DNA of 64,000 bases, from NCBI GenBank assembly GCA_964642235.1, contig CAZXOP010000001.1:17497-81496 (forward strand), written 5' to 3'. Positions 20,601 to 64,000 of this stretch are shown here, in pieces. This stretch comes from an uncultured Muribaculaceae bacterium (GTDB lineage Bacteria; Bacteroidota; Bacteroidia; Bacteroidales; UBA932). Below the pieces are notes generated by a model. It saw only the letters and a list, made by a program, of their open reading frames with translations, was not told the origin of the DNA and searched no databases. A program made the position numbers and the translations under genes. Position 1 is the stretch's first letter; the number at the start of each line of letters is the position of its first letter.

Positions 20601-20841
20601 GATCCTGATACCCTACAAAGGTGAATACAAGAGTGGCATCTTTAGCACAGTTGATAGCAAACTTTCCATTTGCATCAGCAACTTGACCGTTAGATGTCCC
20701 TTTTATCACGATGTAAGCACCTGGTAACGGTTGTCCATCTTGGGAATCCGTTACCGTCCCTGTTACTTGGATGTTCTGTCCCCAAGATAGGGTACAAAAC
20801 ATTAGCATCAAGGAAGAAAGAAAAAATTTAATTTTTTTCAT
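17611..20841 (-). CDS. SusC/RagA-family TonB-dependent outer-membrane transporter
   Basis: 1076 aa with a signal peptide, a carboxypeptidase-regulatory-like domain ([24 protein letters not shown]), a plug domain, and a beta-barrel ending in F. There is no N-terminal STN signalling extension. Confidence 0.93.
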   Translation of the reverse strand: MKKIKFFLSSLMLMFCTLSWGQNIQVTGTVTDSQDGQPLPGAYIVIKGTSNGQVADANGKFAINCAKDATLVFTFVGYQDLEVAVNGRSIINASMASQNILEEVVVTALGITRDKKSLGHAIQEVKGDQLTKAGHLNMAGAIAGKVAGLQVSAAGGQVGAGSRFVIRGNSSLGNNEPLFVVDGIPITNDQTVYGSVNNGSGIMDINPDDIESISVLKGGAGALYGMRAGNGVILITTKSGKNNRGGVSISYDGSFTVDQMFNIPEMQNKYGQGYQGSEYDYNVAKAGGFTGTYQQYVDANCYAWGGIDSNADESWGPRLDVGLLIPQINSPIVGGVRQKTPWISQPNNINDFLELGYSMNHNVSVLGKSDKFNVRASLGVRDQKGAIPNTDQKRYSAQINARYDINKLISFDLTMNYAHTHSDNLPMTAYNAGNPLQSMLEWFGRQVDMKDQKANWEKIDESTGKPYSWNPDYHQNPYYTVYKNTNTYDRNRLFGKASLWLNATDWLKFEARLGYDYYGSKNLQRIAYNTDQPSGGFYDYNMKNIEMNADAIAYINKSFADEMFNVSAVLGANFRDAQFSSLGLGANALIVPELYTVSNASGAPYTAYGHSHIRSNSLYANASIGFKSMVYLDVSVRNDWSSTIKDPFFYPGVSLSWIPTATFEGLKGEFLEYLKIRGGWAKIGSATSAYQTDKYYSAVATPILGQGQFYMPTTLPPAGLRPESVVTAELGLEAHLLKNRIGLDLSLYSKVTSDQILSMAVARPTGYSTMMVNAGEFSNKGIEVQLRGTAVQTRDVTWDVIVNWSKDYSTVNELYTDPKTGQRLLNYQIGNQWSTYLYAKAPIKDENGKITKQYSWGTLYGYGHATDDKGNIIVDASGFPKAETKDLGEVTPNWLASLSSELRYKDFSFGFMFDYRHGGKFFSVTSMWGQYTGILKMTAEGDIREREIVYGVDIFKDLKFVKEDGSPNDIKVTARDAFPYVYSDRSFAVADGSFLKLRELHLTYQLPASKLPKNGFVKGFNVSLIANNVAILWLHPSNYAKIDPESGTSSGNSGVGLESGSYMPSRSVGLKVGLTF

Positions 20842-21108
20842 CTAATGATAATTTTTGGTTAATAAATTAGGTTAATAAAATAAGTAAAATTGGTTTGGAT
20901 AGTTAGTTCTAAGTAATTCTAATGTAAAATAGTACAATGGACTATTTCCTATAAGGAAGCAGAGAAATGCCTTACAAGAAAGAAATAAGCCGAAGTCAAT
21001 AATAGACCAGAGATCGATTATAAGAATAAGTTGTATTAGGTTTCATAATAGCTAAATAATTAATTCCGTTAATTAGTCTTAGCATCATGTTTAGGTGCTT
21101 TGGCTACG

Positions 21109-21116
21109 CAAATATA
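21109..21116 (-). promoter_or_regulatory. candidate -7 promoter box (TATATTTG on minus strand) for the minus-strand susC/susD pair
   Basis: Plus-strand caaatata lies in the 448-bp divergent intergenic region and would give a leader of about 260 nt. Confidence 0.35.
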
Positions 21117-21212
21117 GTTTTTAATTCTTTAATGTCAAATTTTTTTTATCACCCTGTTTTATTTTGGATATAGCTTCTATAGCGTTTTGGTTTGGATTAT
21201 CAATATTTTGAC

Positions 21213-21220
21213 TATATTTG
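21213..21220 (+). promoter_or_regulatory. candidate -7 promoter box TATATTTG with upstream TTTG (-33-like) for the plus-strand susC
   Basis: TAnnTTTG match with a TTTG at 21191..21194 (18-nt spacer), about 70 nt upstream of the ATG at 21290. Confidence 0.5.
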
Positions 21221-21289
21221 CACAAGGATTACGCTAAAATAGCATTATACTTTAACATTAAACATATTACTAACCAACAAATTAATTTC

Positions 21290-24200
21290 ATGAAAAGAAT
21301 CAAATTTATTTTCACGGCGTTACTGTTATTGTTTTCTTTAAATTCTTTCGCTCAGAATGTAACTATTAAAGGAAAAGTAACGGACGCAAGCAGTGGAGAG
21401 CCAATTCCATTTGCCTCTATCCAAATTAAAGGTACTATGACCGGCACTGCCACTCATGATCTTGGGGAGTATTCTATCTCCGCTCCAACTAACGGAGTCT
21501 TAGTTTTTAGCTCTATAGGGTATAAAAACTTAGAAATACCCATCAATGGACGTACTTCTATAAGCGCCTCATTGGAACCCGAAGCCCTTGCACTCGAAGA
21601 TGTTATAGTAGTTGCATACGGCTCTGTCACTAAAAAAGATTTTACCGGTTCTGTAGCCTCATTTGATGGTAAAAAACTCGAAAAACGTCCTTTGACTAAC
21701 GTTGCTAACGCTTTGGAGGGTGTCTCCACAGGTATTCAGTTTACTTCCGCTTCAGGTCAGCCAGGTTCTTCAGGCTCGATTCGTATTCGCGGTATCGGTT
21801 CAATTAATGCGTCAAGCGATCCATTATATATAGTGGATGGTGTTCCCTATTCAGATGGGATGTCAAACCTTAATTCCGATGACATTGAGTCTATTTCCGT
21901 TCTTAAAGATGCCTCCTCTTCTGCTCTTTATGGGAGCCGTGCAGCTAACGGAGTCGTGATTATAACCACTAAAAAAGGGCGTTCAGAGAAGATCCAGTTT
22001 GTTGCTAAAGTTAACTACGGAGTCTCTGTCAGGGGTATTCCTGAGTACGATAGAGTAAATGCTTATGATTATTACCCTCTTCTTTGGGAAGCTTATCGTA
22101 ACTCTGTACTCACTACTACTACTCCGGCTATCACCCTCGATGCAGCAAATTTGAAAGCTACAAATGATATAAAAGGGTTACTTGTTAATAACCCCTTTAA
22201 TGTAGCGGATAATGCGATTGTTGGTACAGACGGAAAACTAAATCCTGCTGCTAAACTCCTTTATACTGAGGATTTAGACTGGGCTAAAGCTATAGCAAGA
22301 GTAGGTCATAAACAAGACTATTCAGTCTCTGCAAGTGGTGCCACCAATAAAGCTGATTATTATTTTTCAATTGGCTACATGAAAGAACAAGGATATAGTA
22401 TCAAGTCTGATATGAATAGGGCTACTGCTCGTATTAATATGAACGTTCAGCCTACAAAATGGTTAAAGGCAGGTGTAAACCTCTCAGGAACCTCTTCAAA
22501 GTCTAGCATAACCAATGATGATTCTTCTACAGGTTATGTAAATCCTTTCTTCTTCTCAAGAGATATTGGTCCTATTTACCCTATTTATCAGCATAATGCA
22601 GATGGTAGTTATCTGTTGGATGAGCAGGGTCAAAAACTATATGAGTGGGATAAGAGGGGTGCTTCAGGTTCTCCCGGAAGACACGTAATAGCTGAGACAC
22701 TATGGAATGATAATATGAATAGAAGGAATGTTATCAATAGTAGAACTAATGCCGAAATTACATTTATAAAAGGATTGAAATTTAGCGTAAACTTAGGGTA
22801 TGACCTAAGAAATCAGCTTGACTCCAGATATGATAATACCAAAGTGGGAGATGGTGCTCCTGCCGGTCGTTCAAATGCCACTGTCTATTTTTATGAGACT
22901 ATCAACTTTAACCAGCTCCTCTCTTATCAGAATAGTATAGGTAATCATAATTTTAATCTTCTTGCAGGTCATGAGACTTATGATAGAAGTTATGAGTATG
23001 TTTATGGTATGAAACAAGGAATTATCGCTGAAGGAAATACCAAGCTTGTTAACTTTACCACTATCAACTCATTCACCGGGTATTCGGGCAACTATAGAAC
23101 AGAGGGTTATTTTGCAAGAGCTGACTATAATTATTATAACAAATATTATGTTTCTGCCTCTTTCAGAAGGGATGGTACATCTAAATTTGCCCCCCAATCT
23201 CGTTGGGGTAATTTCTGGTCTCTCGGAGGTTCTTGGAGATTGGATCAAGAGAATTTCCTAAAATCTTCACCGGCTATCGACTTGTTAAAACTACGTCTCT
23301 CTTATGGGCTTGTAGGTAATGACGGAACAGATTCGTGGTATCCTTGGCAGTCTGTTTATGATATTAACAGATATGGAAATGCCCCTGGATTCATTCAAAG
23401 TACTTCAGCCGGGAATGATAAACTACAGTGGGAGGTAAATAAGTCTTTCGACGTGGCAATAGATTATGGTTTCTTTAAAAATAGAATTACCGGCTCTATT
23501 GAGTTCTTCCATAGAATTTCAGACAACCTTCTCTTCTCTGTTCCACTTCCTGAGTCCTCCGGTGTGCTTGCACAATGGCAGAATGTGGGATGTATGTATA
23601 ACCAGGGTATCGAGTTCCAATTGGGTGCGGATATTATAAGGAGTAGAGACTTTGTATGGAATACTCTTCTAAACGCATCTCATGTGGAAAATAAAATTAC
23701 CAGACTTCCTGAAGGACAGCCTGAAATTATTTCCGGGACCAAAAAGCTATCAGTAGGTCATTCTATTTATGATTTCTGGTTATATGATTTTGCCGAAGTA
23801 AATCCTGAAACGGGTGATGCTATGTATTATAAGGATATTAAGGATGCAGAGGGCAATGTAACCACACAAAGGGGAGATAAGACCAATGACTATGCTTTGG
23901 CAGATGAATATTATGTTGGAACTTCCATTCCTATGGTATATGGGAGCTGGAGTAATACCTTCTCTTACAAAGGTCTTGAATTATCAGTTCTTCTAACTTA
24001 CCAACTTGGCGGTAAAATTTATGATAGTGCATATATAAGACTAATGACTCCAACTTATGGTGGTTCATTACATGCTGATGCACATAAGAGATGGAAAGTC
24101 AGTGGTGATGTTACTGATGTACCAAGGCTTGATAACTCAAGAAATGCTTACCAATATGCAGCTTCATCAAGATGGTTAACTGATGCTTCATATTTAGGGG

Positions 24201-24409
24201 TAAGAAATGCTACCCTCTCATATAGTTTTCCCAAGAAAGTTTGTGAGAAGTTAACACTTAGTGGACTATCAATTTTCGTGAATGGTGAGAATCTCTACTC
24301 TTTCACGGCAAGAAAGGGGATGAACCCTCAGTATAATTTCGCAGGGACTCAGTCCAACGTTTACGGATATGCCCGCGCTATTACTTTTGGCTTAAATGTT
24401 AAATTTTAA
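21290..24409 (+). CDS. SusC/RagA-family TonB-dependent outer-membrane transporter
   Basis: The signal peptide MKRIKFIFTALLLLFSLNSFAQ starts at the internal ATG; the ORF-track TTG at 21218 overlaps the promoter box. It has a CarboxypepD_reg-like domain, a plug, and a barrel ending VKF. Confidence 0.93.
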   Translation: MKRIKFIFTALLLLFSLNSFAQNVTIKGKVTDASSGEPIPFASIQIKGTMTGTATHDLGEYSISAPTNGVLVFSSIGYKNLEIPINGRTSISASLEPEALALEDVIVVAYGSVTKKDFTGSVASFDGKKLEKRPLTNVANALEGVSTGIQFTSASGQPGSSGSIRIRGIGSINASSDPLYIVDGVPYSDGMSNLNSDDIESISVLKDASSSALYGSRAANGVVIITTKKGRSEKIQFVAKVNYGVSVRGIPEYDRVNAYDYYPLLWEAYRNSVLTTTTPAITLDAANLKATNDIKGLLVNNPFNVADNAIVGTDGKLNPAAKLLYTEDLDWAKAIARVGHKQDYSVSASGATNKADYYFSIGYMKEQGYSIKSDMNRATARINMNVQPTKWLKAGVNLSGTSSKSSITNDDSSTGYVNPFFFSRDIGPIYPIYQHNADGSYLLDEQGQKLYEWDKRGASGSPGRHVIAETLWNDNMNRRNVINSRTNAEITFIKGLKFSVNLGYDLRNQLDSRYDNTKVGDGAPAGRSNATVYFYETINFNQLLSYQNSIGNHNFNLLAGHETYDRSYEYVYGMKQGIIAEGNTKLVNFTTINSFTGYSGNYRTEGYFARADYNYYNKYYVSASFRRDGTSKFAPQSRWGNFWSLGGSWRLDQENFLKSSPAIDLLKLRLSYGLVGNDGTDSWYPWQSVYDINRYGNAPGFIQSTSAGNDKLQWEVNKSFDVAIDYGFFKNRITGSIEFFHRISDNLLFSVPLPESSGVLAQWQNVGCMYNQGIEFQLGADIIRSRDFVWNTLLNASHVENKITRLPEGQPEIISGTKKLSVGHSIYDFWLYDFAEVNPETGDAMYYKDIKDAEGNVTTQRGDKTNDYALADEYYVGTSIPMVYGSWSNTFSYKGLELSVLLTYQLGGKIYDSAYIRLMTPTYGGSLHADAHKRWKVSGDVTDVPRLDNSRNAYQYAASSRWLTDASYLGVRNATLSYSFPKKVCEKLTLSGLSIFVNGENLYSFTARKGMNPQYNFAGTQSNVYGYARAITFGLNVKF

Positions 24410-24422
24410 TTAAAAGAAGAAT

Positions 24423-25916
24423 ATGAAAAGAATATATATATTATTAGCCCTAATGGCAATATTGGTGGGTGTTACTTCTTGTAGTAAAGACTTCTTAAAT
24501 ACTGCTCCAACTTCTTCTTACGATGCGGGGATGATATTTACGACTACCGATAATGCAAAATATGCCATAAATGGGATGCATAAAGCAATGGTGGCTCAGT
24601 ATAACAGCAGACAAAACCAGAGCGGTTATACAGGGATGCAAATTTTAATGGATGTGCTTGGAGAGGACGTTGTTTTCCCTACTAGAGGGAATGGATGGTG
24701 GGTAAACGAGCTACAATGGCTTGGTCACACCGATGAAAACAACTGGCCTACTCTTTATCCTTATAGATTCTTCTATAAGTTAATAGCTAACGCCAATATG
24801 ATTCTCGATAATGTGGATAATACAGTAGGACCAGAGGGGGATAAAATAATGATTAAAGGTCAGGCTCTTGCATATCGTGGATTATCATATTTTTGGCTTG
24901 TTCAACTTTATGGAAAGAGGTATGTAGCAGGAGGAGATAACACAAGTTTAGCTGTTCCTTTGGTTATAGATTCTAAGGAGGTTGAAAAACCTCTTGAAAC
25001 TGTGGATAAAATATATGCACAAGTTATCACAGATTTGGAAACCTCTATTACCCTCTTGCAAGATCCTAAAAACACATTTAAGTCCCCAAGCAAGGCTGAT
25101 TTCACAGTTCCTATCGTTCAGGGACTTAGGGCGCGTGTTGCTCTTGTAATGCAGGATTGGGTAAAGGCTGAACAATATGCTGTTGCCTCTTTGACTAAAT
25201 CAACCTCCACGCTGATGAGTCAGGCTGATTATACAGCCGGTTTTAATAATGCGACAAATCCTGAGTGGATGTGGGGATTCGAAATGATCTCTGACCAGAC
25301 TCTCTATTTCTATGGCTACATGGCATATATGTCTTGGAACTTTAACTCAACCAATATTCGTACATGCCCTAAATGTATTAATAGTAAATTATATGCTGAA
25401 ATTTCAGGAACTGATATTCGTAAAACTCTTTGGGACCCCACAGGCAAAGCATGGACAATGCCTAGAACTACATACACCAAGAAACCTTATATGAATAGGA
25501 AGTTCCAAGTTTTGGATCCGGCGAGCTCTGTTGCAGATGCTGTTTATATGAGGAGAGCAGAAATGCTTCTTATAGCTGCTGAAGCACAGGCTATGCAGAA
25601 TAAGGCCGCAGATGCACAGAATAATCTATTTACTTTGCTCAAAGCAAGAGATAATAGTTATGTTAAATCTTCTTCCACCGGAGCAACCCTTCTTAAAGAG
25701 ATACATACTCAAAGAAGAATTGAACTTTGGGGGGAAGGTCATCGTTGGCTTGACCTAAAGAGATTAAACCTATCTCTTGATAGAAATGGTGCAAATCATG
25801 ATGCTGCCGTCTCCTTAACAATGTCTGTTCCTGCAGGGGATGCAAGGTGGAAATTCAAGATTCCTAAGAATGAAATTGATGCTAACAAACAAATACCAAA
25901 AAACATCAATCAGTAA
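24423..25916 (+). CDS. SusD/RagB-family outer-membrane lipoprotein
   Basis: 497 aa with a lipoprotein signal (GVTSC) and the C-terminal RRIELWGEGHRWLDLKR motif typical of SusD-like TPR proteins, 13 nt downstream of susC. Confidence 0.92.
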   Translation: MKRIYILLALMAILVGVTSCSKDFLNTAPTSSYDAGMIFTTTDNAKYAINGMHKAMVAQYNSRQNQSGYTGMQILMDVLGEDVVFPTRGNGWWVNELQWLGHTDENNWPTLYPYRFFYKLIANANMILDNVDNTVGPEGDKIMIKGQALAYRGLSYFWLVQLYGKRYVAGGDNTSLAVPLVIDSKEVEKPLETVDKIYAQVITDLETSITLLQDPKNTFKSPSKADFTVPIVQGLRARVALVMQDWVKAEQYAVASLTKSTSTLMSQADYTAGFNNATNPEWMWGFEMISDQTLYFYGYMAYMSWNFNSTNIRTCPKCINSKLYAEISGTDIRKTLWDPTGKAWTMPRTTYTKKPYMNRKFQVLDPASSVADAVYMRRAEMLLIAAEAQAMQNKAADAQNNLFTLLKARDNSYVKSSSTGATLLKEIHTQRRIELWGEGHRWLDLKRLNLSLDRNGANHDAAVSLTMSVPAGDARWKFKIPKNEIDANKQIPKNINQ

Positions 25917-25942
25917 TTTATTTTATCAAAAATTATCTATTA

Positions 25943-25975
25943 AAAGCCGATTAATTACATTAGTCGGCTTTTTTA
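25943..25975 (+). terminator. rho-independent terminator after the first plus-strand SusCD pair
   Basis: Stem aaagccga / tcggcttt followed by a T-run. Confidence 0.6.
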
Positions 25976-26075
25976 TTTCATTTTTTTACTTATATTTGCA
26001 TTTAGTTATGATGTGAAATGTTCGTAAACTAATTAAAGTTCTTTATTTTACACTATATTTTATACTATTTGTATA

Positions 26076-26083
26076 TACTTTTG
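26076..26083 (+). promoter_or_regulatory. candidate -7 promoter box TACTTTTG for the second plus-strand susC (alternative TATATTTG at 25991..25998)
   Basis: There are two TAnnTTTG matches in the 234-bp spacer. The nearer one is 68 nt upstream of the ATG at 26151. Confidence 0.35.
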
Positions 26084-26150
26084 GGATATTACTATTCTAT
26101 TTATATATCACTAACTAATTACTTAATTTATTAACCAAAAAATTATTTAC

Positions 26151-29100
26151 ATGAAAAGAATCAGACTTTTTTTAACGGGTCTATTGCTTGTAATGACTGC
26201 AAACTTATTTGCACAGAATCTACAAGTTACAGGAACTGTTACTGATGCATCTACAGGAGACCCAATTCCCTTCGCTTCCGTTCAAGTAAAGGGAACCATG
26301 GTTGGTACTGCAACAGACGACAATGGTAAGTATTCCATTTCTGTCTCAGCTAATGGTGTTCTAATTTTCAGCTCAGTAGGTTACACAAATGTTGAAACCC
26401 AAGTGATGAATCGCACTGTCATCAATGCAGCTCTGCCTGTTGATGCTATTGCTTTGGAGGATGTTATCTTAGTTGCGTATGGAACAGCTAAGAAATCTTC
26501 TTTTACAGGGTCAGCAGTTTCTGTTTCCGGAGACAAAATTAAAAAGACACAAGTTTCTAACATCTCTAAAGCATTAGAGGGAGCTGTCCCTGGTCTTCAA
26601 ACTGCAAGTAGCAGTGGTACTCCCGGTTCAGGTGCGAGTATTATTATTCGTGGACTCGGTTCTATCTCTGCTTCTCAGTCTCCTCTTATAGTGGTTGACG
26701 GTGTTCCTTATGAAGGTTCATTGAACTCAATCCCTACTCAGGATATTGAGAACCTTACAGTATTAAAGGATGCTGCCGCTAACTCTATGTACGGAGCCAG
26801 AGGTTCTAACGGAGTTATCCTAATTCAGACAAGACAGGCTAAAACTGATGTTATTCAGGTCTCTTTTGAGGCTCGCGCCGGTGTTAACACAAGGGGAGTC
26901 CCTGCCTATAATATTATTACCAACCCTGCCGAATATTATGAGATGATGTATGAATCTATCAGAAATTCACTCACAGAAGGTGGTGGAATGTCCCTTATGC
27001 AGGCTAATCTTTTTACTGCTGATAAACTTATAAGCAATTATCTTAAATATAACATCTATAAAGGTGTTGCGGACAATGCTCTTATCGACCCTTATACAGG
27101 GAAGATTAATCCTAATGCTAAAACCTTAAAATGGACAGACAACTGGAGCACAGACCCTTTCCATAATGGTATTCGTCAGGAGTATAACCTTAATATACTC
27201 GGAGGTACTGAGAAGACTAAGGCTTATGCCTCTGTCTCATATCTTGGAGATGATGGTTATGTTTCTAACTCAGGTTTTAATAGAATAGCTGCCCGTGTTA
27301 AAATCGATCAGACTGTTAACAAATTCATTAAAGCAGGGGTAAACCTCGCATACTCTAATACAGAGCAACAGACATTTGGTTCTGCAAGTTCTAACTATTC
27401 TAATATCTTTATGTTCTCCCAGAGCATTGGTCCTATCTATCCTATCTATTTATATGATGCAGATGGACTTCCTCTTAAAGATGTAAATGGTAAAACTCGT
27501 TATGACTATGGTACTGAATATAATCGTCCTTATGCACAGGAGCAGAATCCACTCTCATCTTTAATAAATGGAGAGAGAAAGTATGTAAGGGATAATATCT
27601 CCTCAAGAGCTTATGTTGATTTTAATATAATGAAAGATCTTAAATTCACAGTCAACATGGCTTATGACGTCTTCTTGGATACCAATACCGAGTTTACCAC
27701 CCCTGTTGGAGGTGATGCAAAAGGTGTAGGTGGTAGAGGGTATAAGACTTCAAGTAGATATGCAGCTCTTAACGCTAACCAGCTCCTTAGTTACTCTCCT
27801 ACATTTGGCGACCATTCGATTAGTCTCCTTTTAGGACATGAGAACAAACGTGATAACTCCAACTACTTAATGGGACACATGACCAATTTCGTAGATATTT
27901 ATAACCCCGAATTTGCAAATGCTACTCTTTATCAGGATCTTACTTCAAACACCTCAGAGTATGCGTTGGAGGGTTATTTCGGAAGAGCGGAGTATTCTTA
28001 TAAAGACAGATATTATCTATCCGGTTCTTATCGTATGGATGCTTCGTCACGCTTTGCTCCGGATGTACGTTGGGGTAGTTTCTGGTCAGTGGGAGCTTCA
28101 TGGAGAGTTACAGGAGAGGATTTCTTAAAAGGCTCAAATATCATTAATAACTTAAAACTTAAAGCCAGTTATGGTACCCAAGGTAACGATAACATCGGTA
28201 TGTCCAAAGTTTATCTTGACCTATATACCATCTCAAGAGTTAACGGTAAAGCCGGTGTAAGTAAATCTTTCCGCGGAAACCCTGCTGTTACTTGGGAAAA
28301 GAGTACCAATATGAACGTCGGAATCGAAGCCGGTTTCTGGAACAGAGTTAATATAGCTGCTGACTTCTTTATTAAGAAGACCACAGATATGATCTATTAT
28401 CGTCCTCTTCCACCATCCGAAGGGAGTCCTTCTTCTAAGATAGTAAACGATATCGATATGAAGAATACCGGAGTTGAGTTTGAAATTTCAGTTGACGCTG
28501 TTAAGACAAGAGATATCAGATGGAATATCTCATTCAATGGTACCACATATAAGAACGAACTTACCAAACTTCCTTCCGATAAAGACCCTAAGGGGTATCA
28601 GGCAGGTTCTTATTGGAGAAAATTAGGCGGTTCACTTTATGATTATTATACATACCAGTGGGCAGGGGTTAACGAAGAGAATGGAAAACCTCAGTACAAG
28701 AAATATGTTAAAGATGCTGAAGGTAAAGAGACCGGAGAGATAGAACTTGTTAATAAGACCTCAGATGCCACTCTTAAGGAGGTAGGTAAATCCTCTATTC
28801 CTAAACTTTATGGAGGTATTACCACCACCCTTGATGCTTTTGGAGTTGATTTATCTATTTCAGGTGCATATCAGTATGGTGGGTATGTTTGGGATTCATT
28901 CTACTCTTCATTGATGAACCCAGGAGATGCCGGTAATAATATGCATACCGATATGTTCAACCGCTGGACAGTAAATAATAAAAAGACTGATGTTCCAAGA
29001 CTTCTCTATCAAGATAGGGATGCTAATGCAAGTTGTGACAAATGGTTAGTTACTGCTTCGTATTTCTCTTTAAGAAATGTTACCTTAGGATATACTATAC

Positions 29101-29279
29101 CAAGTAAACTTACTAATAAAGTGGATATCCAAAGAGTAAGAATATATCTATCGGGAGACAATCTATGGCTCAAATCAGCTAGAAAAGGTCTTGACCCTCG
29201 TCAGTCATTTGATGGTGGTACAGGATATGTTTATTCTGCTTTAAGTACTTACTCAGTAGGTCTTAATATCGTATTCTAA
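26151..29279 (+). CDS. SusC/RagA-family TonB-dependent outer-membrane transporter
   Basis: 1042 aa with a signal peptide, a CarboxypepD_reg-like domain, a plug and a barrel. It is clearly paralogous to the 21290 susC: compare VTDASTGDPIPFASVQVKGTMVGTATDDNGKYSIS with VTDASSGEPIPFASIQIKGTMTGTATHDLGEYSIS. Confidence 0.93.
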   Translation: MKRIRLFLTGLLLVMTANLFAQNLQVTGTVTDASTGDPIPFASVQVKGTMVGTATDDNGKYSISVSANGVLIFSSVGYTNVETQVMNRTVINAALPVDAIALEDVILVAYGTAKKSSFTGSAVSVSGDKIKKTQVSNISKALEGAVPGLQTASSSGTPGSGASIIIRGLGSISASQSPLIVVDGVPYEGSLNSIPTQDIENLTVLKDAAANSMYGARGSNGVILIQTRQAKTDVIQVSFEARAGVNTRGVPAYNIITNPAEYYEMMYESIRNSLTEGGGMSLMQANLFTADKLISNYLKYNIYKGVADNALIDPYTGKINPNAKTLKWTDNWSTDPFHNGIRQEYNLNILGGTEKTKAYASVSYLGDDGYVSNSGFNRIAARVKIDQTVNKFIKAGVNLAYSNTEQQTFGSASSNYSNIFMFSQSIGPIYPIYLYDADGLPLKDVNGKTRYDYGTEYNRPYAQEQNPLSSLINGERKYVRDNISSRAYVDFNIMKDLKFTVNMAYDVFLDTNTEFTTPVGGDAKGVGGRGYKTSSRYAALNANQLLSYSPTFGDHSISLLLGHENKRDNSNYLMGHMTNFVDIYNPEFANATLYQDLTSNTSEYALEGYFGRAEYSYKDRYYLSGSYRMDASSRFAPDVRWGSFWSVGASWRVTGEDFLKGSNIINNLKLKASYGTQGNDNIGMSKVYLDLYTISRVNGKAGVSKSFRGNPAVTWEKSTNMNVGIEAGFWNRVNIAADFFIKKTTDMIYYRPLPPSEGSPSSKIVNDIDMKNTGVEFEISVDAVKTRDIRWNISFNGTTYKNELTKLPSDKDPKGYQAGSYWRKLGGSLYDYYTYQWAGVNEENGKPQYKKYVKDAEGKETGEIELVNKTSDATLKEVGKSSIPKLYGGITTTLDAFGVDLSISGAYQYGGYVWDSFYSSLMNPGDAGNNMHTDMFNRWTVNNKKTDVPRLLYQDRDANASCDKWLVTASYFSLRNVTLGYTIPSKLTNKVDIQRVRIYLSGDNLWLKSARKGLDPRQSFDGGTGYVYSALSTYSVGLNIVF

Positions 29280-29307
29280 CTATTAACACTATAATTATAC
29301 ATAGAAA

Positions 29308-31669: not shown

Positions 31670-31693
31670 TTAGTTTAGGTTCTAATAATATTT

Positions 31694-31729
31694 GTGGGTG
31701 GTCAGTGTAAATTGACCACCCACTTTTTT
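31694..31729. terminator. bidirectional rho-independent terminator between the PUL lipoprotein gene and the convergent hypothetical gene
   Basis: 11-bp stem gtgggtggtca / tgaccacccac with an 8-nt loop followed by a T6 run. Confidence 0.7.
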
Positions 31730-32465: not shown

Positions 32466-32489
32466 GATTTTATAAATTATGTTAAAACA

Positions 32490-32521
32490 AACACCCCCCA
32501 AAAGTTATTTTGAGGGGTGTT
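32490..32521 (-). terminator. hairpin terminator downstream of rpoC
   Basis: Stem aacacccc / ggggtgtt, followed on the minus strand by T-rich tgtttt. Confidence 0.5.
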
Positions 32522-32536
32522 AATTAATTTAAGAAA

Positions 32537-36799: not shown

Positions 36800-36832
36800 A
36801 TTATTGATTTTTCAAATTATCAAAAACTCCAA

Positions 36833-40651: not shown

Positions 40652-40680
40652 TTAGATATGGCTTGGTTGAAAAAACTTAA

Positions 40681-48266: not shown

Positions 48267-48279
48267 TTAAAAGAAGAAT

Positions 48280-49773: not shown

Positions 49774-50007
49774 TTTATTTTATCAAAAATTATCTATTAA
49801 AAGCCGATTAATTACATTAGTCGGCTTTTTTATTTCATTTTTTTACTTATATTTGCATTTAGTTATGATGTGAAATGTTCGTAAACTAATTAAAGTTCTT
49901 TATTTTACACTATATTTTATACTATTTGTATATACTTTTGGGATATTACTATTCTATTTATATATCACTAACTAATTACTTAATTTATTAACCAAAAAAT
50001 TATTTAC

Positions 50008-53136: not shown

Positions 53137-53164
53137 CTATTAACACTATAATTATACATAGAAA

Positions 53165-54661: not shown

Positions 54662-55526
54662 TTTTAAAAAAAAGATGGTTATGAAAAATATATCTAAAAT
54701 TCTCTATTTAGGACTCATTTCGCTCTTTCTCTTCTCATCATGTGCCGAAAAGCCACTTGTTAAGGGTGAGGTCGAAAAGGGATTTTCCGGATCAGTTGCG
54801 AATATGCCTACATTATCCATTACAGGAGCTACCTTAGAGCCTGTTAAAGGTCAGATAGTTACTTGTACAGGTACTATTACCACCACAGGTGAGATTCGTG
54901 AAGTAGGTTTTGCTTATGCCAAAAAAGCCGATTTTTCAGATAAGAAAACTGCTACAGGGAAATTGACAGGGACTACTTTCACTGCTAATATTACTTTAGA
55001 GCCTCTAACTCAGTACTATATAAAAGCTTATGGTATTGTTAATGAAGGAGCCGCAGAAAGTGAAGGACAGAAGAGTGTAACTACTCCCGATCTTCCATTC
55101 TATGATAAAGTACTTGGTAACTTTAAAGGAAACATGAAGTCTGCTGCTTATGGAACTGCATACAATGGCTATACTATTTCTCTATTACCCTATAGTGCAG
55201 ACCTTGTAAATAAAGTTATAGTAGCTCATACAGATCCTTATTATTTCGGTAAAGGATATAAATATCCTAAGAATAACTTTGTTATAGGGACTATTGATGC
55301 TACTAATAAGACTGTTACTGTGACTGCTGGAGCACAAATGACTCTTGGAACTTTCGGAGTAGTAGCTGTTAATTCAGACAAATGGGCAGGAGCAACTAGA
55401 ATTTCAAACTGGGTTTTAACCTTTATCGATAATGTTACTTTTAAGGCTAATGCTTGGGGTACTTACGATTTAGACTCCAATGAATGGGATGATCAATATG
55501 AACTTGTAACTAATTTTAAGAAATAA
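54654..55526 (+). CDS. PUL-associated surface lipoprotein (duplicate of 30797..31669)
   Basis: Translation identical to copy 1. Confidence 0.6.
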   Translation: MNNFKKKMVMKNISKILYLGLISLFLFSSCAEKPLVKGEVEKGFSGSVANMPTLSITGATLEPVKGQIVTCTGTITTTGEIREVGFAYAKKADFSDKKTATGKLTGTTFTANITLEPLTQYYIKAYGIVNEGAAESEGQKSVTTPDLPFYDKVLGNFKGNMKSAAYGTAYNGYTISLLPYSADLVNKVIVAHTDPYYFGKGYKYPKNNFVIGTIDATNKTVTVTAGAQMTLGTFGVVAVNSDKWAGATRISNWVLTFIDNVTFKANAWGTYDLDSNEWDDQYELVTNFKK

Positions 55527-55584
55527 TTAGTTTAGGTTCTAATAATATTTGTGGGTGGTCAGTGTAAATTGACCACCCACTTTT

Positions 55585-56322
55585 TTATAATGAATATAAA
55601 ATTAAACTAAATAGAGTCTGTTTGATTTCATATTTATTGAAGCCGTTCCAGCTTGCGTCTCGCATCTTAGGTGTCTGCTGTTGTATGAGAGCCCCCTTAA
55701 TAATTACCCTCCCTCTCTCTCTAAGTGAATACTCTTTTTTTCTCCCATTTTTATATATAAGAGTAAATTCCGAATAGGTCCCTATCACCTCTCTTTCAGG
55801 GAGCATAAGAGAGAGATTCTCCTCCAATCCTAAAAGAGTGGGAGTACAGATAACGCTTTCACTTCCAACCCATCCCCTTACAGTAATATTTTTACTCTTA
55901 TTGACTGCGGTAACTTCACAGGCAACAGCCCCCCCTAAAAAATCAAAAGGAGAATAATAAAAAGTCTCTTTGGTTCTTATTAATACAGCATTTGGTAAAA
56001 ATTGCTCTACCTTAATATCCCAGTCCAATATTCTCCCTGTTACCCCATCTCCGGTAACCTCTACTTTCTCCGCATTATTTATCGGAAGTGCCCTCTTTTT
56101 AGTATTATCAATAATATAGAGTGAAGGGGGATTCTTATCTATAGTTAGAGTTGTTAACTTAATAACATAAGGAAGGAACACCTCTTTTCCACTTTTTGTT
56201 TTAGCTAAATAGACCCCTTCATCTAATGGAGAAGAGAGTGTTAATTTCCTGACAGGAAGGAAAAAGAAGATTATTAGAGAAGTGACTGCAATGAGCACTA
56301 TAGTTAGTTTTCTGGTTTTCAT
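55585..56322 (-). CDS. hypothetical membrane-anchored protein (duplicate of 31728..32465)
   Basis: Translation identical to copy 1. Confidence 0.55.
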   Translation of the reverse strand: MKTRKLTIVLIAVTSLIIFFFLPVRKLTLSSPLDEGVYLAKTKSGKEVFLPYVIKLTTLTIDKNPPSLYIIDNTKKRALPINNAEKVEVTGDGVTGRILDWDIKVEQFLPNAVLIRTKETFYYSPFDFLGGAVACEVTAVNKSKNITVRGWVGSESVICTPTLLGLEENLSLMLPEREVIGTYSEFTLIYKNGRKKEYSLRERGRVIIKGALIQQQTPKMRDASWNGFNKYEIKQTLFSLILYSL

Positions 56323-56393
56323 GATTTTATAAATTATGTTAAAACAAACACCCCCCAAAAGTTATTTTGAGGGGTGTTAATTAATTTAAGAAA

Positions 56394-59300
56394 TTACTCA
56401 TCTCTCTTTCGAGAAACCATTCTTTCGTAATCCTCTTTAGAGGCTACTATTAGACGGTCGTACTCCCTTAGTCCTGTACCTGCAGGGATAAGGTGACCAC
56501 AGATTACATTCTCTTTCAGACCTTCCAATGTGTCAACTTTTGCATGTATTGCTGCATCGCTTAATACTTTGGTGGTCTCCTGGAATGAGGCGGCTGACAT
56601 AAAGCTGTTAGTTCTAAGCGCTGCACGGGTTATCCCTTGCAGAACCTGATTTGAGGTAGCAGGAATGGCATCCCTTGCCTCAACAAGCTTCTTGTCCTGT
56701 CTCTTAAGGATAGAGTTTTCATCTCTGAGTTTCCTTAGAGTTACTATCTGTCCCGGTCTAAGCTCCTGAGAATCTCCTGCATCGAGGACAACTTTCTTAT
56801 CGAATACATTGTCGTTCTCTTGTGTAAATTCCCATTTATCGACTAACTGTTCAGGGAGGAAACGAGTGTCACCCGGATCTACGATTTCCACTTTTCTCAT
56901 CATTTGACGAACAATGATTTCAAAGTGTTTATCATTGATTTTCACCCCTTGCATACGGTAAACTTCTTGAATTTCGTTTACAATATACTCTTGAACTTTT
57001 ATAGGACCTTGAATAAGTAGGATATCAGTAGGGGAGATAGCTCCATCAGAGAGGGACATACCGGCTCTGATATAGTCGTTCTCCTGAACTAAAATCTGTT
57101 TTGATAGAGGAACGAGATATCTCTTTTCTTCTCCGGTTTTGGATTGGACGATAATCTCTCTGTTACCTCTTTTGATTTTACCCATTTGAACCTCACCATT
57201 AATTTCTGATACTACGGCAGGGTTTGAAGGATTTCTTGCTTCGAAAAGTTCGGTAACTCGAGGAAGACCTCCTGTGATATCACCGGATTTACCAATAGCT
57301 CTTGGAATCTTTACTATCACCTCGCCTGCTTTAACGGTTTGACCTATGTCCACCATAATGTGTGCACCTACGGGTAGGTTATAGGTTCTAAGCGCCGTAT
57401 TTCCACTCATAATTTTTAGAGTAGGGTTCTTAGACTTATCCCTCGACTCAATTATAACTTTTTCACGATGGAGAGAGAACTCATCAGTGGCCTCTTCTCT
57501 ATATGTAACTCCCTCAATAAAGCTATCGAATGCTACTTCTCCGGTTGTCTCTGTAATGGTAACTGCATTATAAGCATCCCATTCACATATTTTATCCCCC
57601 TTAGCAACAATAACCCCATTTTTCTGATAGAGCTTCGCCCCATAAGGGATATTATTGTGTGAGAGAACTATTCCGGTGTTTACATCCACGATGTTCATCT
57701 CGGCTGTACGTCCGATAACTATTTCGTGTTCTCCTTCATCATCAGTTTTGGTTACAGTCCTAAGTTCGTCGAACTCAAGACGACCATCGTAACGTGCTAT
57801 AATCTCACTCTCTGAAGCAATACTTGAAGCAGTACCCCCAACGTGGAAAGTTCTAAGTGTCAACTGTGTACCAGGCTCTCCGATGGATTGTGCTGCAATA
57901 ACTCCCACGACTTCTCCCTTCTCCACCATTCTTCCTGTGGCAAGATTTCTTCCGTAGCATTTTGCGCAAACACCCTTTTTGGACTCGCAAGTTAAAACCG
58001 AGCGAATTTCTACTTGTTCAATAGGTAAAGAGCTGATTAGAGAGGCGATATCCTCTGTTATCTCATCTCCTGCTTTAATTATAGAGGCCCCTGTAAGAGG
58101 GTTGTAGATATCATGCACAGATGTTCTACCTAAAATTCTCTCGTAAAGAGTCTCTACTATTTCATCTTTGTTTTTGATAGCAGTTGCCACCAATCCTCTT
58201 AATGTTCCGCAATCCTCTTCATTTATGATGACATCGTGAGATACATCGACTAAACGACGAGTTAAGTATCCGGCATCAGCAGTCTTTAAAGCTGTATCTG
58301 CAAGACCTTTACGGGCACCGTGAGTAGAAATAAAGTACTCAAGAACTGAAAGCCCTTCTTTAAAGTTGGAAAGGATAGGGTTCTCGATAATCTCAGATCC
58401 AACAGCACCTGATTTTTGAGGCTTTGCCATAAGACCACGCATACCGCAGAGCTGACGAATCTGCTCTTTGGAACCACGGGCTCCTGAGTCAAGCATCATA
58501 TATATAGGATTGAAACCTTGCTGGTCTTGCTCGATATTCTTGGTAACCATATTCGTAAGTCTCGAATTGGTGGTAGTCCAAATATCGATAATTTGATTGT
58601 ATCTTTCATTATTGGTTATCAAACCGAAGTTATAACTCTGCTGAATGGTTTCAACCTCTTTATAACCTGCTTCGATAAGGTCTGTTTTCTCCTTAGGAAC
58701 AATAACGTCTGCAAGATTGAAAGAGAGTCCCCCCTTGAAAGCCATCTTATATCCAATGTCTTTAATATCATCGAGGAACTGTGCGGTACGGGCTACTCCC
58801 GAAACTTTTACCACTGTTCCGATAATATCCCTAAGGGATTTTTTGGTAAGAATCTCATCTATATAACCAACCTCTTTTGGTACTACCTGATTAAAGATTA
58901 TCCTCCCTGTAGTGGTCTTATCTTTAGTTATATACCCTTTTGAGAGGTCATCTGCATCTTTAGGAACCCTTACAGATACTAATGCGTGGAGATCCACTTT
59001 CCCTTCATTATAAGCTATTATCGCCTCTTCAGCTCCATAGAATTTCATCCCTTCCCCTTTAACCCCCTTACGAGGTTTAGTTATATAGTAGAGACCAAGT
59101 ACCATGTCTTGTGAAGGAACGGTAATAGGTGCTCCGTTTGCAGGGTTAAGGATGTTATGTGAGCCTAACATTAATAATTGTGCTTCGAGTATAGCAGCAT
59201 TCCCAAGTGGGAGATGCACTGCCATCTGGTCACCGTCAAAGTCAGCGTTAAATGCAGTACAAGAGAGAGGATGTAGCTGTATAGCTTTTCCCTCTATCAA

Positions 59301-60656
59301 CTTAGGCTGGAAGGCTTGAATCCCGAGGCGGTGTAGGGTAGGGGCACGGTTGAGTAGAACCGGATGTCCTTTCATTACATTCTCAAGAATATCCCATATT
59401 ACAGGGTCTTTACGGTCAACAATCTTCTTGGCAGATTTTACTGTCTTTACAATCCCTCTTTCAATAAGTTTCCTGATAATAAAGGGTTTATAAAGCTCTG
59501 CAGCCATTAATTTTGGAAGTCCACATTCATGCATTTTAAGCTCAGGACCTACCACAATTACTGAACGGGCAGAGTAGTCAACCCTCTTTCCAAGAAGGTT
59601 TTGACGGAAACGACCTTGTTTCCCTTTAAGACTGTCAGATAGAGATTTAAGTGTTCTGTTAGCTTCTGTTTTGACTGCATTTGATTTGCGTGAGTTGTCA
59701 AAAAGTGAGTCAACAGCCTCCTGAAGCATACGTTTCTCATTACGGAGAATTACCTCGGGTGCTTTAATCTCTATGAGTCTTTTCAGACGATTGTTTCTTA
59801 TAATAACCCTACGATAGAGGTCATTTAAATCCGATGTTGCAAACCTTCCACCATCTAAAGGAACTAATGGTCTTAAGTCGGGAGGTGTTACAGGAACGAC
59901 CTTCATTATCATCCATTCGGGTTTGTTGAACTCTCCGGCTTCACGGAAGGCTTCGATGACACTTAATCTTTTAAGAGCATCAGCCTTACGTTGCTGTGAG
60001 GTCTCATTTTCGGTTTTGTGGCGAAGGTCATATGAAAGCTCATCTAAATTAATATTTTTAAGCATTGCATATATAGCCTCAGCACCCATTCCTGCTACAA
60101 ACTTATTAGGGTCTGTATCCTCTAACATTTGGTTCTCCCTTGGAAGATTATCGAGTACGGTAAGATACTCATCTTCAGTAAGTAGAGCCAATGCTTCTAT
60201 CCCTTGTTCTGCTGCGAGTCCGGGCTGTATTACGACATATCTTTCGTAATAAATAATAGACTCAAGTTTTTTTGATGGGATTCCGAGAAGGTATCCTATT
60301 TTATTTGGGGTTGAGCGGAAATACCAAATATGGGCTACGGGTACAGTAAGGGTTATATGCCCCATTCTCTCCCTGCGGACCTTCTTCTCTGTTACTTCCA
60401 CACCGCATCTGTCGCAGATGATTCCGCGATAGCGAATTCTTTTGTATTTTCCGCAGTGGCACTCATAGTCTTTGGAGGGTCCAAAAATCCTCTCGCAGAA
60501 GAGCCCGTCTCTTTCAGGTTTATATGTGCGGTAGTTAACCGTTTCAGGCTTAAGAACTTCCCCGGAGGATCTTTCGAGGATCTCTTCGGGAGAGGCTAAC
60601 CCAATGGTTATCCTATTGAAATTACTTTTAACCTTGATCTCTTTTTTAAAAGACAT
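56394..60656 (-). CDS. rpoC: DNA-directed RNA polymerase subunit beta' (second copy)
   Basis: 1420-aa translation identical to 32537..36799. Confidence 0.98.
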
Positions 60657-60689
60657 ATTATTGATTTTTCAAATTATCAAAAACTCCAA

Positions 60690-63600
60690 TTAATCTAAGT
60701 GTATGCTTAGTCCAAGTCCACGAAGTTCGTGGAGAAGTACATTAAGGGATTCAGGAATACCGGGTGTCGGCATAGGGTCTCCTTTAACAATGGCTTCGTA
60801 AGCGCGTGAGCGTCCCACAACGTCATCAGATTTTATGGTAAGGATCTCCTGAAGAATATTTGATGCTCCGAATGCTTCAAGAGCCCAAACCTCCATTTCT
60901 CCGAATCTTTGTCCTCCGAATTGTGCTTTACCTCCAAGAGGTTGTTGGGTGATAAGAGAGTAAGGACCTATTGAACGGGCGTGCATCTTGTCGTCCACCA
61001 TGTGTCCAAGTTTAATCATATAGATTACCCCCACAGTAGCTGGCTGGTCAAATTGCTCTCCTGTTCCACCATCTCTCAAGAAAGTTCTTCCGTATTGTGG
61101 AATCCCTGCTTTTTCGGTATATTGTGTGATCTCGGTAAGAGTTGCTCCGTCAAAAATAGGGGTAGAGAACTTGATACCAAGCTCTTTACCTGCCCATCCA
61201 AGAACGGTCTCGTAAATCTGTCCAAGGTTCATACGGGAAGGAACACCAAGAGGATTTAATACTATATCCACAATGGTTCCATCTTCAAGGAATGGCATAT
61301 CTTCATCTCTAACGACTTTAGCTACTATCCCTTTATTACCATGGCGACCTGCCATTTTATCTCCAACTTTAACCTTTCTCTTTTTCGCAACATAAACTTT
61401 TGCAAGCTGCATAATACCGCTTGGAAGTTCATCTCCGATAGTAAGGTTATATTTTAGTCTTTTTAATTCGGCATCATACTCTTTATATGCTATCATATAA
61501 TTGTTTATGAGCTTTTTAATCTGACTGTTAGCATTCTTATCGGATGTCCATTTAGTAGGATTGATATTTTCGTAATCTATCCTTGAAAGAACATCAGGAG
61601 TGAAAGCGTCACCTTTAGGAACTATTTCAGCTCCATAGAGATCGCTAACTCCGCTACTCTTCTTATCAAAAGTCAGAATAGTAAGTTTATCGATAAATCT
61701 CCCTTTTAAGTCAGATGTCTTTTTATTAAAGTCATCTTCTACATGCTGGATTTGATTCTTAGCAGAGGATTTTCCACGCTTACTTCCCTCTTTTCCTACT
61801 CTTGCAAACAATCTCTTTCCGATAATAGTTCCTGAGAGAGAAGGAGTTGCTTTTAATGAAGCATCTTTAACATCTCCTGCTTTGTCTCCAAAGATCGCTC
61901 TAAGAAGTTTCTCTTCAGGGGAAGGATCGCTCTCTCCCTTAGGGGTAATTTTACCAATCAAAATATCTCCGGGCTCGATATTGGCACCAATACGGATAAT
62001 ACCGTTTTCGTCCAAATCTTTTGTAGCCTCTTCGCTAACATTAGGGATATCTGCAGTTAACTCCTCCATTCCGCGTTTAGTATCACGTACTTCCATGGCA
62101 TACTCGTCAACATGGATGGATGTGAAGATATCATCTCTTATTATTTTTTCAGATAAGACAATAGCATCCTCAAAGTTATACCCTTTCCAAGGCATAAATG
62201 CCACTTTCAGGTTCCTTCCAAGTGCAAGTTCTCCATTCTGGGTAGCGTAACCTTCGGTTAAGATCTGCCCTGCCTCTACCTTATCCCCTTTTCTTACAAT
62301 AGGTTTAAGGTGAATAGAGGTTGACTGGTTAGTTTTTCTATAAAGAGGAAGTTTATATACAGTAATATCTGAATTAAAGCTTACAAATTTCTCAGCATCG
62401 GTCTGCTCATATTTAATATGAATCTCTCTCCCATCAACAAAAACTACTTCTCCTTTCCTTTCAGCTACTATCTGTGTTCTTGAGTCACGAACAACCACTC
62501 CTTCAAGTCCTGTTCCCACGATAGGAGCTTCAGGTCTAATCAAAGGAACTGCTTGACGCATCATGTTAGATCCCATCAAGGCACGGTTTGCGTCGTCGTG
62601 TTCGAGGAAAGGGATAAGTGAAGCTGCAATGGAAGCTATCTGGTTAGGAGCAACGTCCATAAAGTGGACTTCCTCCTTAGTTACCACAGGGTAGTCTGCT
62701 TCGTAACGACATTTAATCCTTTCGTCAAGAATGTCACCTGTTTCGGCAAGATTAACGTTTGCCTGAGCAACCATCTTGTCCTCTTCAGCCTCAGCACTCA
62801 TATATTCATATCCGCTCGGAGTCATATCTACGATACCATCTTTAACTTTCCTATAAGGGGTTTCGATGAATCCAAGATCATTGATTTTAGCGTAAACACA
62901 GAGTGAAGAGATAAGACCGATATTAGGTCCTTCAGGGGTCTCAATAGGGCAGAGACGTCCGTAATGAGTATAATGCACGTCTCTAACTTCGAAACCTGCG
63001 CGATCTCTTGAAAGACCTCCCGGGCCTAATGCAGATAGACGACGTTTATGTGTCATCTCAGCTAAAGGATTTGTTTGGTCCATAAACTGAGAAAGCTGAC
63101 TTGTCCCAAAGAATGAATTAATTACAGAAGAGAGGGATTTGGCATTTATAAGGTCTGTAGGAACAAACACTTCATTATCCCTAACGTTCATTCTCTCTCT
63201 TATAGTACGTGCCATACGGGTGAGTCCTACGCTAAACTGGTTAGCAAGTTGCTCTCCCACAGTTCTGATTCTTCTATTACTTAGGTGGTCGATATCATCA
63301 ACACTTGCCTTAGAATTAATTAATTGAATCAGATATCTGATAATTTCTATAATGTCATCCTTAGTTAAAACTCTTACATCAGAAGAGGTGTTTAATTCCA
63401 ATTTCTGATTAAGACGATATCTTCCAACTTCTCCAAGGTCATACCTTTTATCTGAGAAGAAGAGTTTGTCTATGACATCTCTTGCAGTAGCTTCGTCTGG
63501 TGGTTCAGAGTTTCTTAACTGTCTGTAAGTGTAAAATACAGCCTCTTTTTCTGAGTTGCAGACATCCTTCTGCAATGTATTGTGAATTATAGCATAATCA

Positions 63601-64000
63601 CTTACGTTAGCGTCATCTTTTCTTAAGAGGATGGTATTTACACCTGATTCGAGAATGTCATCAATATGATGCTCTTCGAGGAGAGTATCTCTATCGACCA
63701 CTATCTCGTTTCTTTCAATATATACAACTTCTCCTGTATCTTCATCCACAAAGTCCTCATTCCAAGTCTTAAGAACTCTCGCGGCAAGTTTAACTCCGAG
63801 GTTCTTAGATAAATCTTCCCTTGTGGCTTGAATCTCATCAGCCAATCCAAAGATATCGAGGATATCCTTGTCACTTTCATAACCGATGGCTCTAAGCAGA
63901 GTGGTAACAGGCAATTTCTTTTTACGGTCGATATAGGCATACATGACGTTATTTATGTCAGTAGCAAATTCGATCCATGAGCCTTTAAACGGAATAATTC
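60690..64000 (-). CDS. rpoB: DNA-directed RNA polymerase subunit beta (second copy, 5' end beyond window)
   Basis: The visible C-terminal ~1100 codons are identical to 36833..40143. The ORF-track start at 63944 is only an internal Met. Confidence 0.97.

Follow-up and report, generated by a model that had tools for sequence, protein, structure and literature searches.

The 64,000-nt window, the whole stretch of DNA analysed here, contains a letter-perfect head-to-tail repeat of a 23,857-nt unit that carries two SusC/SusD loci and a block of RNA polymerase and ribosomal protein genes. The contig is a draft, probably assembled from a metagenome, and the repeat in it is most likely an artefact of assembly. 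The initial annotation had left open whether it reflects a very recent event or an artefact, and the evidence leans to the latter. An artefact is favoured because the junction between the copies has 0 nt of microhomology, same-strain contigs show no branch at position 20674, no junction product was found in the other assemblies searched, and the right breakpoint falls in a tuf island at which short-read contigs of the species break off.

Extent and gene content of the repeat

Base-by-base comparison at an offset of 23,857, a check that the initial annotation had proposed, gave one identical run in which 20674..40143 equals 44531..64000 (19,470 of 19,470 nt, 0 mismatches, no N). The perfect repeat described from inspection by eye is thus confirmed over its whole visible length. 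Identity begins exactly at 20674/44531 (20673 is c, 44530 is a), and only the window end cuts it, so that copy 2 is in view for 82% of the unit and the remaining 4,387 nt lie past the window. The second-best identical run at this offset is 10 nt. Chance cannot account for a match of such size. In a repeat search of positions 1..44700 this pair came up again, spaced by 23,857, and was the only repeat above 40 nt in that span. The copies are adjacent and in direct orientation, with a constant period and a single novel end-to-start junction, which is the form of a head-to-tail tandem duplication. The features discussed below are as follows.

17611..20841, minus strand: intact susC-like TonB-dependent transporter gene, 1076 aa (Pfam CarboxypepD_reg and Plug), spanning the left boundary of the unit
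20674..44530: unit copy 1, 23,857 nt
20674..20841, minus strand: susC 5' part in the unit, 168 nt, first 56 codons
21218..25916: SusC/SusD pair 1 (Pfam)
26151..30804: SusC/SusD pair 2 (Pfam)
43717..43790, minus strand: tRNA-Trp (CCA), at which short-read Logan contigs of the strain stop
43861..44530, minus strand: truncated tuf, 3' 670 nt, EF-Tu residues about 174-395
44501..44560: novel junction 44530/44531, ...GAGCACCAAGAGCAGAA joined to ATCAGCAACTTGACCG...
44510..44698, minus strand: chimeric ORF, 62 aa, with 56 susC codons (signal-peptide end) running out of frame into the truncated tuf and a stop after 6 codons
44531..64000: visible part of unit copy 2, 19,470 nt, equal to 20674..40143, stopping within rpoB at the window end

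The unit opens with the 168 nt of the susC 5' end, followed by a divergent intergenic region, the two SusC/SusD pairs, a 290-aa ORF and a 257-aa ORF. It continues through rpoC, rpoB, rplL, rplJ, rplA, rplK, nusG, secE and tRNA-Trp to the 670 nt of the tuf 3' end. RpoC and RpoB have Pfam matches, SecE, L7/L12, L10 and L11 have NCBIfam matches, and NusG and L1 take the Pfam labels carried by identical proteins. Together with the tRNA call, these assignments bear out the gene list first drawn up from the sequence, including the partial genes at both ends. The 290-aa and 257-aa ORFs matched no Pfam or NCBIfam family. The same two libraries revealed no transposase, integrase or replication gene in the unit, and its remaining families belong to PUL, transcription and translation functions only.

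The junction between tuf and susC

At 44530/44531, tuf is cut past the second base of a Gly codon and fused to codon 56 of susC; the 32-mer that spans the join is GAGCACCAAGAGCAGAAATCAGCAACTTGACCG. The initial annotation was right about this geometry, a direct repeat with one novel junction inside two unrelated genes. Microhomology is 0 nt on either side and there are 0 filler bases: native tuf reads ...CAGGG/TTCTGC and native susC reads ...GCTGAT/GCAAAT, with 0 nt of overlap. Likewise, ...AGCAGAA is followed by CC in all 61 other Bacteroidota tuf loci and in a sister species that is 91% identical, whereas the unit starts with A. The endpoints therefore lack the shared base pairs that define a microhomology-mediated (short-junction) duplication. 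No shared k-mer of at least 14 nt occurs within 60 nt to either side of the two breakpoints, and the repeat search identified no repeat family and no terminal or att-like repeats at the unit boundaries. Direct repeats at both boundaries (IS, rrn, REP or paralogues), as in homologous recombination (R-D-R-D-R), are absent, as are the marks of a mobile element or site-specific recombinase. A homology-mediated mechanism is ruled out by the absence of boundary repeats or shared k-mers.

A free circular copy of the unit, arising as an excision by-product, or its rolling-circle or MDA amplification, would give the same end-to-start junction in place of a chromosomal array, and amplification chemistry can create such joins. 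We consider this extremely unlikely for a unit with the gene content given above and no att-like repeats, and a circle unable to replicate would stay below the depth needed for assembly.

The truncated tuf lacks the GTPase domain, and its gene call is a 203-aa protein with a Met start (P0124) on an 86,649-bp NCBI draft contig, which appears to be the source of the window. Judged by orientation only, transcription from the susC promoter region in its second copy (44699..45074) would pass via the chimeric ORF toward the truncated tuf, tRNA-Trp, secE and nusG, and on to the copy-1 rpoC.

Because the junction has no flanking homology, the event, if biological, would be an illegitimate recombination, as the initial annotation had supposed. 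A real and very recent homology-independent tandem duplication of 23,857 bp, or one step of an amplification, in the sequenced population is possible but doubtful. RecA-independent joining of a tuf break to a susC break on the sister chromosome would double two SusCD loci, rpoBC, rplKAJL, nusG, secE and tRNA-Trp. One susC and presumably one tuf would stay intact, and the copy-1 block from secE to rpoC would come to lie downstream of the second susC promoter. Duplications are frequent in bacterial populations, and homology-independent duplication junctions have been reported in bacteria (Acinetobacter amplicons). The geometry is exactly the one expected of such an event, with one end-to-start junction, copies in direct orientation and the left flank intact, and zero divergence fits an event that is young and unstable.

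With its head-to-tail layout over tens of kb, endpoints in unrelated genes, identical copies and expected instability, the repeat resembles the RecA-independent 'short-junction' duplications and amplifications of Salmonella, E. coli and Acinetobacter (PMC3411829, PMC1428787). However, when spontaneous rearrangements were surveyed across the Salmonella genome, junction homology was at least 11 bp in every verified duplication, and junctions of low homology agreed with what ligation chimeras would give (PMC3411829). The junction described here has 0 nt and no flanking repeats, and it has been observed once only, which argues against a real duplication. The tandem layout is also that of duplications formed by homologous recombination between rrn, IS or REP copies (R-D-R-D-R; bioRxiv 10.64898/2026.05.22.727201), but the present unit has no boundary repeat of at least 35 bp, nor even of 14 nt.

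Same-strain contigs, sister species and the right flank

In three other runs, short-read contigs of the same strain extend 2.6-4.7 kb to each side of 20674 with no break or graph branch, and the 1076-aa susC is uninterrupted in all three. Their identities are given below.

L067, SRR11845623: 100% over 10,132 nt
L070, SRR11845624: 100% over 8,683 nt
L068, SRR10769912: 99.99% over 7,994 nt

If a duplication junction had good coverage, a branch would be expected at 20674, so these unbroken contigs speak against a real duplication, with the proviso that the three runs may differ from the sample behind the contig with the repeat. The identical strain occurs in SRR11845619, SRR11845623, SRR11845624, SRR11845633, SRR11845634, SRR10769912, SRR16642441, SRR16642449, SRR27197510, SRR8925722 and ERR7015389. 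A literature search for the SRA runs returned no publication. The start of the window was also considered as a possible contig start, but the L077 contig from Logan extends to the left of window base 1 by more than 10 kb; thus, no universal graph landmark lies at that position.

The sister species carries the block once, with tuf intact and followed by tRNAs and dxs, so the comparison of synteny with a relative that had been suggested at the outset points to a single copy. In this lineage tuf forms an island of 1.3 kb, bordered by tRNA-Trp on one side and by a Thr-Tyr-Gly-Thr tRNA cluster on the other. Contigs of the same species end at these borders, three in tRNA-Trp (L001, L004 and L005) and one in tRNA-Thr (L076). 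A tuf island between tRNA clusters is a classic graph tangle.

The initial annotation described a layout of left flank, unit, unit and right flank (A-U-U-B), with an intact gene at each outer edge. This holds for A, where susC is intact, and is demonstrated for A only; flank B is expected from about 68,388 and an intact right tuf at about 68.4-68.9 kb, both beyond the window. Adding the 17,928-nt right flank of the sister species to 68,905 gives 86,833, compared with the 86,649 observed. A contig of 86,649 bp thus fits A-U-U-B with a sister-like right flank, which favours a real duplication, as does a junction internal to the deposited contig, with P0124 and RpoC on that single contig. Weak evidence in the other direction comes from the protein collection, in which neither an intact EF-Tu nor a Dxs of this strain was seen from NCBI; the evidence is weak because the clustering there is leaky (L1 proteins 94% identical were left unmerged). 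A guessed full-length EF-Tu, built from the sister N-terminus and the window C-terminus, is also absent from this collection, and the sister EF-Tu cluster is a singleton. In MFS and Dxs searches the Dxs of the species came from Logan only (P0289), again with clustering that sometimes leaves pairs of more than 90% identity unmerged.

An exact-protein look-up in the ENA/JGI/Logan/NCBI gene index returned no record of the 62-aa chimera or of the truncated EF-Tu as 203, 206 or 225 aa; P0124 is known from the protein cluster table, from one NCBI contig only. Exact 22- to 34-mers taken from the tuf end and from the unit start had no match in the metagenome and viral contigs searched. The same k-mer search in genome contigs matched 61 other species, whose genomes share the last 22 nt of the unit as an exact 22-mer, so that the breakpoint on the tuf side does lie at a conserved k-mer. 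The susC-side breakpoint lies at no conserved or repeated k-mer in a later k-mer profile, which is circular on the tuf side because its loci had been picked by that 22-mer. The lack of a second observation of the junction in the searched collections counts against a real duplication.

The repeat could also have arisen while the record or window was built, by concatenation of overlapping contigs or from untrimmed ends of a circular contig, so that 44530/44531 would be a sequence end. A blunt junction, arbitrary breakpoints and perfect identity would suit this origin, and tuf is a typical contig end (many entries read 'elongation factor Tu, partial'). We nevertheless regard it as very unlikely. 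P0124 starts at an internal Met, whereas edge-cut NCBI EF-Tu proteins start with non-Met residues, and the RpoC and RpoB encoded by the unit were located on a single NCBI contig instead of two; judged from these proteins, the junction does not coincide with a record end. In addition, if 23.9 kb of an 86.6-kb record were terminal overlap, the remainder would be a 62.8-kb circle carrying rpoBC, which is absurd.

Origin of the repeat and its consequences

We think it rather probable that the assembler ran through a loop created by a spurious or minor junction. On the chromosome the block is probably single-copy, and the order there would be susD-susC, two PULs, rpoC to secE, tRNA-Trp, tuf, the tRNA cluster and dxs. 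A chimeric library fragment or a very minor variant could have provided a junction path that leads from about position 518 of tuf back to codon 56 of susC. With such a path the assembly graph would contain a loop, from which a path-based assembler would write out the 23.9-kb unit twice. Letter-perfect identity of the copies and a blunt join within two genes would follow automatically. With short reads, a perfect repeat of 24 kb can be resolved only if a graph loop is traversed. We infer that the bulk of the population does not carry the junction, and that the double writing was done by the assembler.

The repeat shares its letter-perfect copies and its blunt, homology-free junction inside genes with assembler loop or concatemer artefacts and with misjoins from chimeric reads. 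One end at a tRNA/tuf graph tangle and occurrence in one contig only are further points of likeness. Unlike the usual concatemer artefacts, which affect small circular genomes, it involves a chromosomal segment with a unique left flank, and a specific junction path must therefore have existed in the reads. As the susC-side breakpoint has no conserved or repeated k-mer, simple mis-traversal of the graph via a shared k-mer cannot explain the join. A junction path in the source reads is also the counterpoint to an artefact, because a real duplication supplies one as well as a chimera does.

Artefact or duplication, either is a known kind of thing and opens no new question. If it is an artefact, the repeat is a data-quality flag only: the contig carries a fake truncated tuf and overstates the copy number of rpoB, rpoC, ribosomal proteins and two PULs, a set that includes marker genes for contamination, copy-number and growth-rate inference. 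If it is real, it would be one more case of the well-known unstable tandem duplication, here caught in a wild uncultured gut Bacteroidales and giving a momentary view of how copy number varies within a gut population in nature. Two polysaccharide-uptake loci would then be doubled together with rpoBC and the L11-L7/L12 operons, and one secE-nusG-rpl-rpoBC block would be rewired behind a susC promoter. Such a duplication would have formed without junction homology and would include PULs whose dosage diet can select.

The repeated unit and its junction

In a base-by-base self-comparison of the window at an offset of 23,857, positions 20674..40143 and 44531..64000 form a single unbroken run of 19,470 identical bases. 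The second-longest identical run at this offset is 10 nt, and N is absent from the window. The tandem repeat that the initial annotation had traced by eye is thus real in the record, and its start at 20674/44531 is exact (20673 is c, 44530 is a). To the right, identity is limited by the window end; 82% of the second copy is visible, and its right end is expected at 68,387. A repeat search of 1..44700 returned no repeats >40 nt other than the 23,857-spaced pair. The unit (20674..44530) has the contents first described for it:

Features in and around the unit
17611..20841, minus strand: full copy of a susC-like gene (1076 aa), spanning the unit's left boundary
start of the unit: susC 5' end, 168 nt
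beyond the susC 5' end: divergent intergenic region, 376 nt
within the unit: two SusC/SusD pairs
30797..31669, plus strand: ORF of 290 aa without a family match
31728..32501, minus strand: ORF of 257 aa without a family match
within the unit, in this order: rpoC, rpoB, rplL, rplJ, rplA, rplK, nusG, secE
43717..43790: tRNA-Trp, between secE and the tuf remnant
right end of the unit: tuf 3' end, 670 nt

The 290-aa and 257-aa ORFs had zero Pfam or NCBIfam matches; gene calls on the NCBI contig start both later (283 and 245 aa). The 257-aa ORF lies directly downstream of rpoC, a position at which the sister species has no counterpart.

On the plus strand the junction (44530|44531) reads ...GAGCACCAAGAGCAGAA|ATCAGCAACTTGACCG... 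On the minus (coding) strand, susC codon 56 (...GTT GCT GAT) runs straight into T TCT GCT CTT... of tuf, which is broken two bases into a Gly codon.

Junction products
44510..44698: chimeric ORF, 62 aa
at the junction: EF-Tu fragment without the GTPase domain

The unit's last 22 nt match exactly in 61 other species, and tuf continues natively with CC in 61 of the 61 Bacteroidota genomes that carry them. In the sister species (91% nucleotide identity over rpoC..tuf), native tuf reads ...ATTCAGGG|TTCTGCTC, and homology to the window ends exactly at 44530; native susC at the breakpoint reads ...GTTGCTGAT|GCAAATGG. Comparison of the two native sequences therefore leaves 0 nt common to both endpoints, on either side, and no bases are inserted. 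No k-mers of at least 14 nt near either breakpoint recur elsewhere in the window, and no boundary repeats were found at the unit ends.

The layout is that of a tandem duplication, as proposed, with head-to-tail copies and one end-to-start junction; at the population level, such a duplication is defined by 2x depth, independent junction reads and an intact right flank. It differs from duplications by homologous recombination (no boundary repeats), by microhomology (0 nt shared) and by mobile elements (no transposase, integrase or replication genes within the unit). If the event is biological, these junction sequences would make it illegitimate recombination, as originally suggested, of a homology-independent kind. 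The phenomenon is already well known, whichever explanation holds.

The deposited contig

The protein cluster table places the window's RpoC, RpoB, H+-PPase, SusC, SusD, NusG and L1 on an 86,649-bp NCBI contig, RpoC being recorded on one NCBI contig only. The same contig carries the truncated tuf, whose 203-aa product (P0124, MEAVDTYIP...) has an internal Met start and is 100% identical to the window; EF-Tu fragments cut by contig ends begin with non-Met residues under NCBI annotation. Therefore, the junction is internal to the deposited contig, which disfavours a window stitched from two records or read across the untrimmed ends of a circular one. Record-building explanations, together with that of a circular by-product, receive only the residual probability.

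An intact tuf and dxs may follow the second copy. Assuming that the window start is contig base 1, the predicted copy-2 tuf start (68,905) plus the sister's right flank (17,928 nt) gives 86,833, versus 86,649 observed. Against this, the sister's EF-Tu is alone in its cluster, and Dxs of the source species (P0289) comes from Logan only, but clustering is leaky: 90% clusters leave some 94%-identical pairs, such as L1, unmerged. Moreover, a 222-aa EF-Tu fragment query returned only partial EF-Tu and missed the sister's 98.6%-identical full-length protein (P0157). Absence from homology or cluster lists is therefore weak evidence. A Logan contig (L077) extends leftward past the first base of the window by >10 kb, so the deposited contig is not forced to begin there.

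The coordinates of copy-2 rpoC (56394..60656) and of the predicted tuf differ by just 4-6 nt from those on the sister contig (rpoC 56388..60650), which is 86,829 bp against 86,649 bp, extends ~21.7 kb further leftward and lacks the duplication. This coincidence may reflect a window start at contig base 1 with a common right-hand landmark, or chance.

Assembly artefact or recent duplication

Perfect copies with one end-to-start junction are predicted alike by a real duplication and by an assembler loop. Between the very recent event and the artefact that the initial annotation had left side by side, we lean towards the artefact, which is the probable explanation: a chimeric or very minor junction would have supplied a path in the reads, and an assembler loop would then have written the unit twice. 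Short reads are not known to resolve a perfect 24-kb repeat except via graph-loop traversal.

The blunt junction favours this reading. In a genome-wide survey (PMC3411829), every verified spontaneous duplication shared 11 bp or more at its junction, and junctions with little homology behaved as ligation chimeras do. Random joins show 0-nt junction homology ~56% of the time.

The artefact is also favoured because the left breakpoint is unbranched in other runs. The source species occurs in several Logan-assembled SRA runs at 99.96-100% identity, and three contigs of the same strain cross 20674 unbroken with 2.6-4.7 kb on each side, where a well-covered duplication junction in a k=31 graph should give a branch:

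Logan contigs crossing 20674
L067 (SRR11845623): 10,132 nt, 100% identical to the window
L070 (SRR11845624): 8,683 nt, 100% identical to the window
L068 (SRR10769912): 7,994 nt, 99.99% identical to the window

Nor does the junction have a second sighting anywhere, its specific products of 62, 203, 206 and 225 aa having no record in the ENA/JGI/Logan/NCBI contig index. Further grounds are the draft status of the 86.6-kb contig and the position of the right breakpoint, in a locus where the species' short-read assemblies fail. Three Logan contigs (L001, L004, L005) end in tRNA-Trp, and the species' RecJ...dxs block (L076, 91.5% identical to the sister) stops 27 nt into tRNA-Thr, which makes tuf a 1.3-kb island with a tRNA tangle on each side. 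In the lineage, tRNA Thr-Tyr-Gly-Thr lies upstream of tuf (9604..9957 of the sister piece L075) and tRNA-Trp downstream of it (11263..11336 there; 43717..43790 in the window). Many MAG entries read 'elongation factor Tu, partial', which shows that contigs habitually break at tuf and makes truncated copies of it in MAGs suspect in general.

A real, recent tandem duplication is possible but less likely, given the absence of homology, of a branch at 20674 in three runs and of the junction elsewhere. Against the artefact, the junction path must have been present in the reads, and the susC breakpoint lies at no shared k-mer, so simple mis-traversal fails to explain the join. The three clean runs are perhaps other than the source sample, and homology-free duplication junctions are on record in bacteria. 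Pending a check of the reads, the finding is best taken as a warning about the quality of the contig.

Sister species and flanking genes

The sister (ERZ15185023 NODE_194; pieces L071 and L075) has one copy of the block, in the order dxs, tRNA Thr-Tyr-Gly-Thr, intact tuf (395 aa), tRNA-Trp and secE...rpoC. To the left of the island, the window holds ordinary housekeeping genes in synteny with those of the sister and of Logan contigs, and no unusual features were seen there.

Left-flank genes
1..15946: OmpH-like, PdxJ, NAD kinase, BamA, two OmpH genes, 2-oxoacid:ferredoxin oxidoreductase (two subunits), glutamate dehydrogenase, hexapeptide transferase, thioredoxin-family protein, Asp/Glu racemase, H+-PPase

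From H+-PPase to rpoC extends a variable PUL island (window 15947..32536; L071 14264..24263; 12209..22208 in the compared contig L072). The sister's island encodes SusC1050/SusD522, SusC1067/SusD539, an S9 peptidase and SusC1042/SusD494, and shares no nucleotide homology with the three SusCD pairs of the window, while flanking housekeeping genes are 91% identical. Both L067 and L070, from the source strain, begin precisely at window 16000, at the edge of the island.
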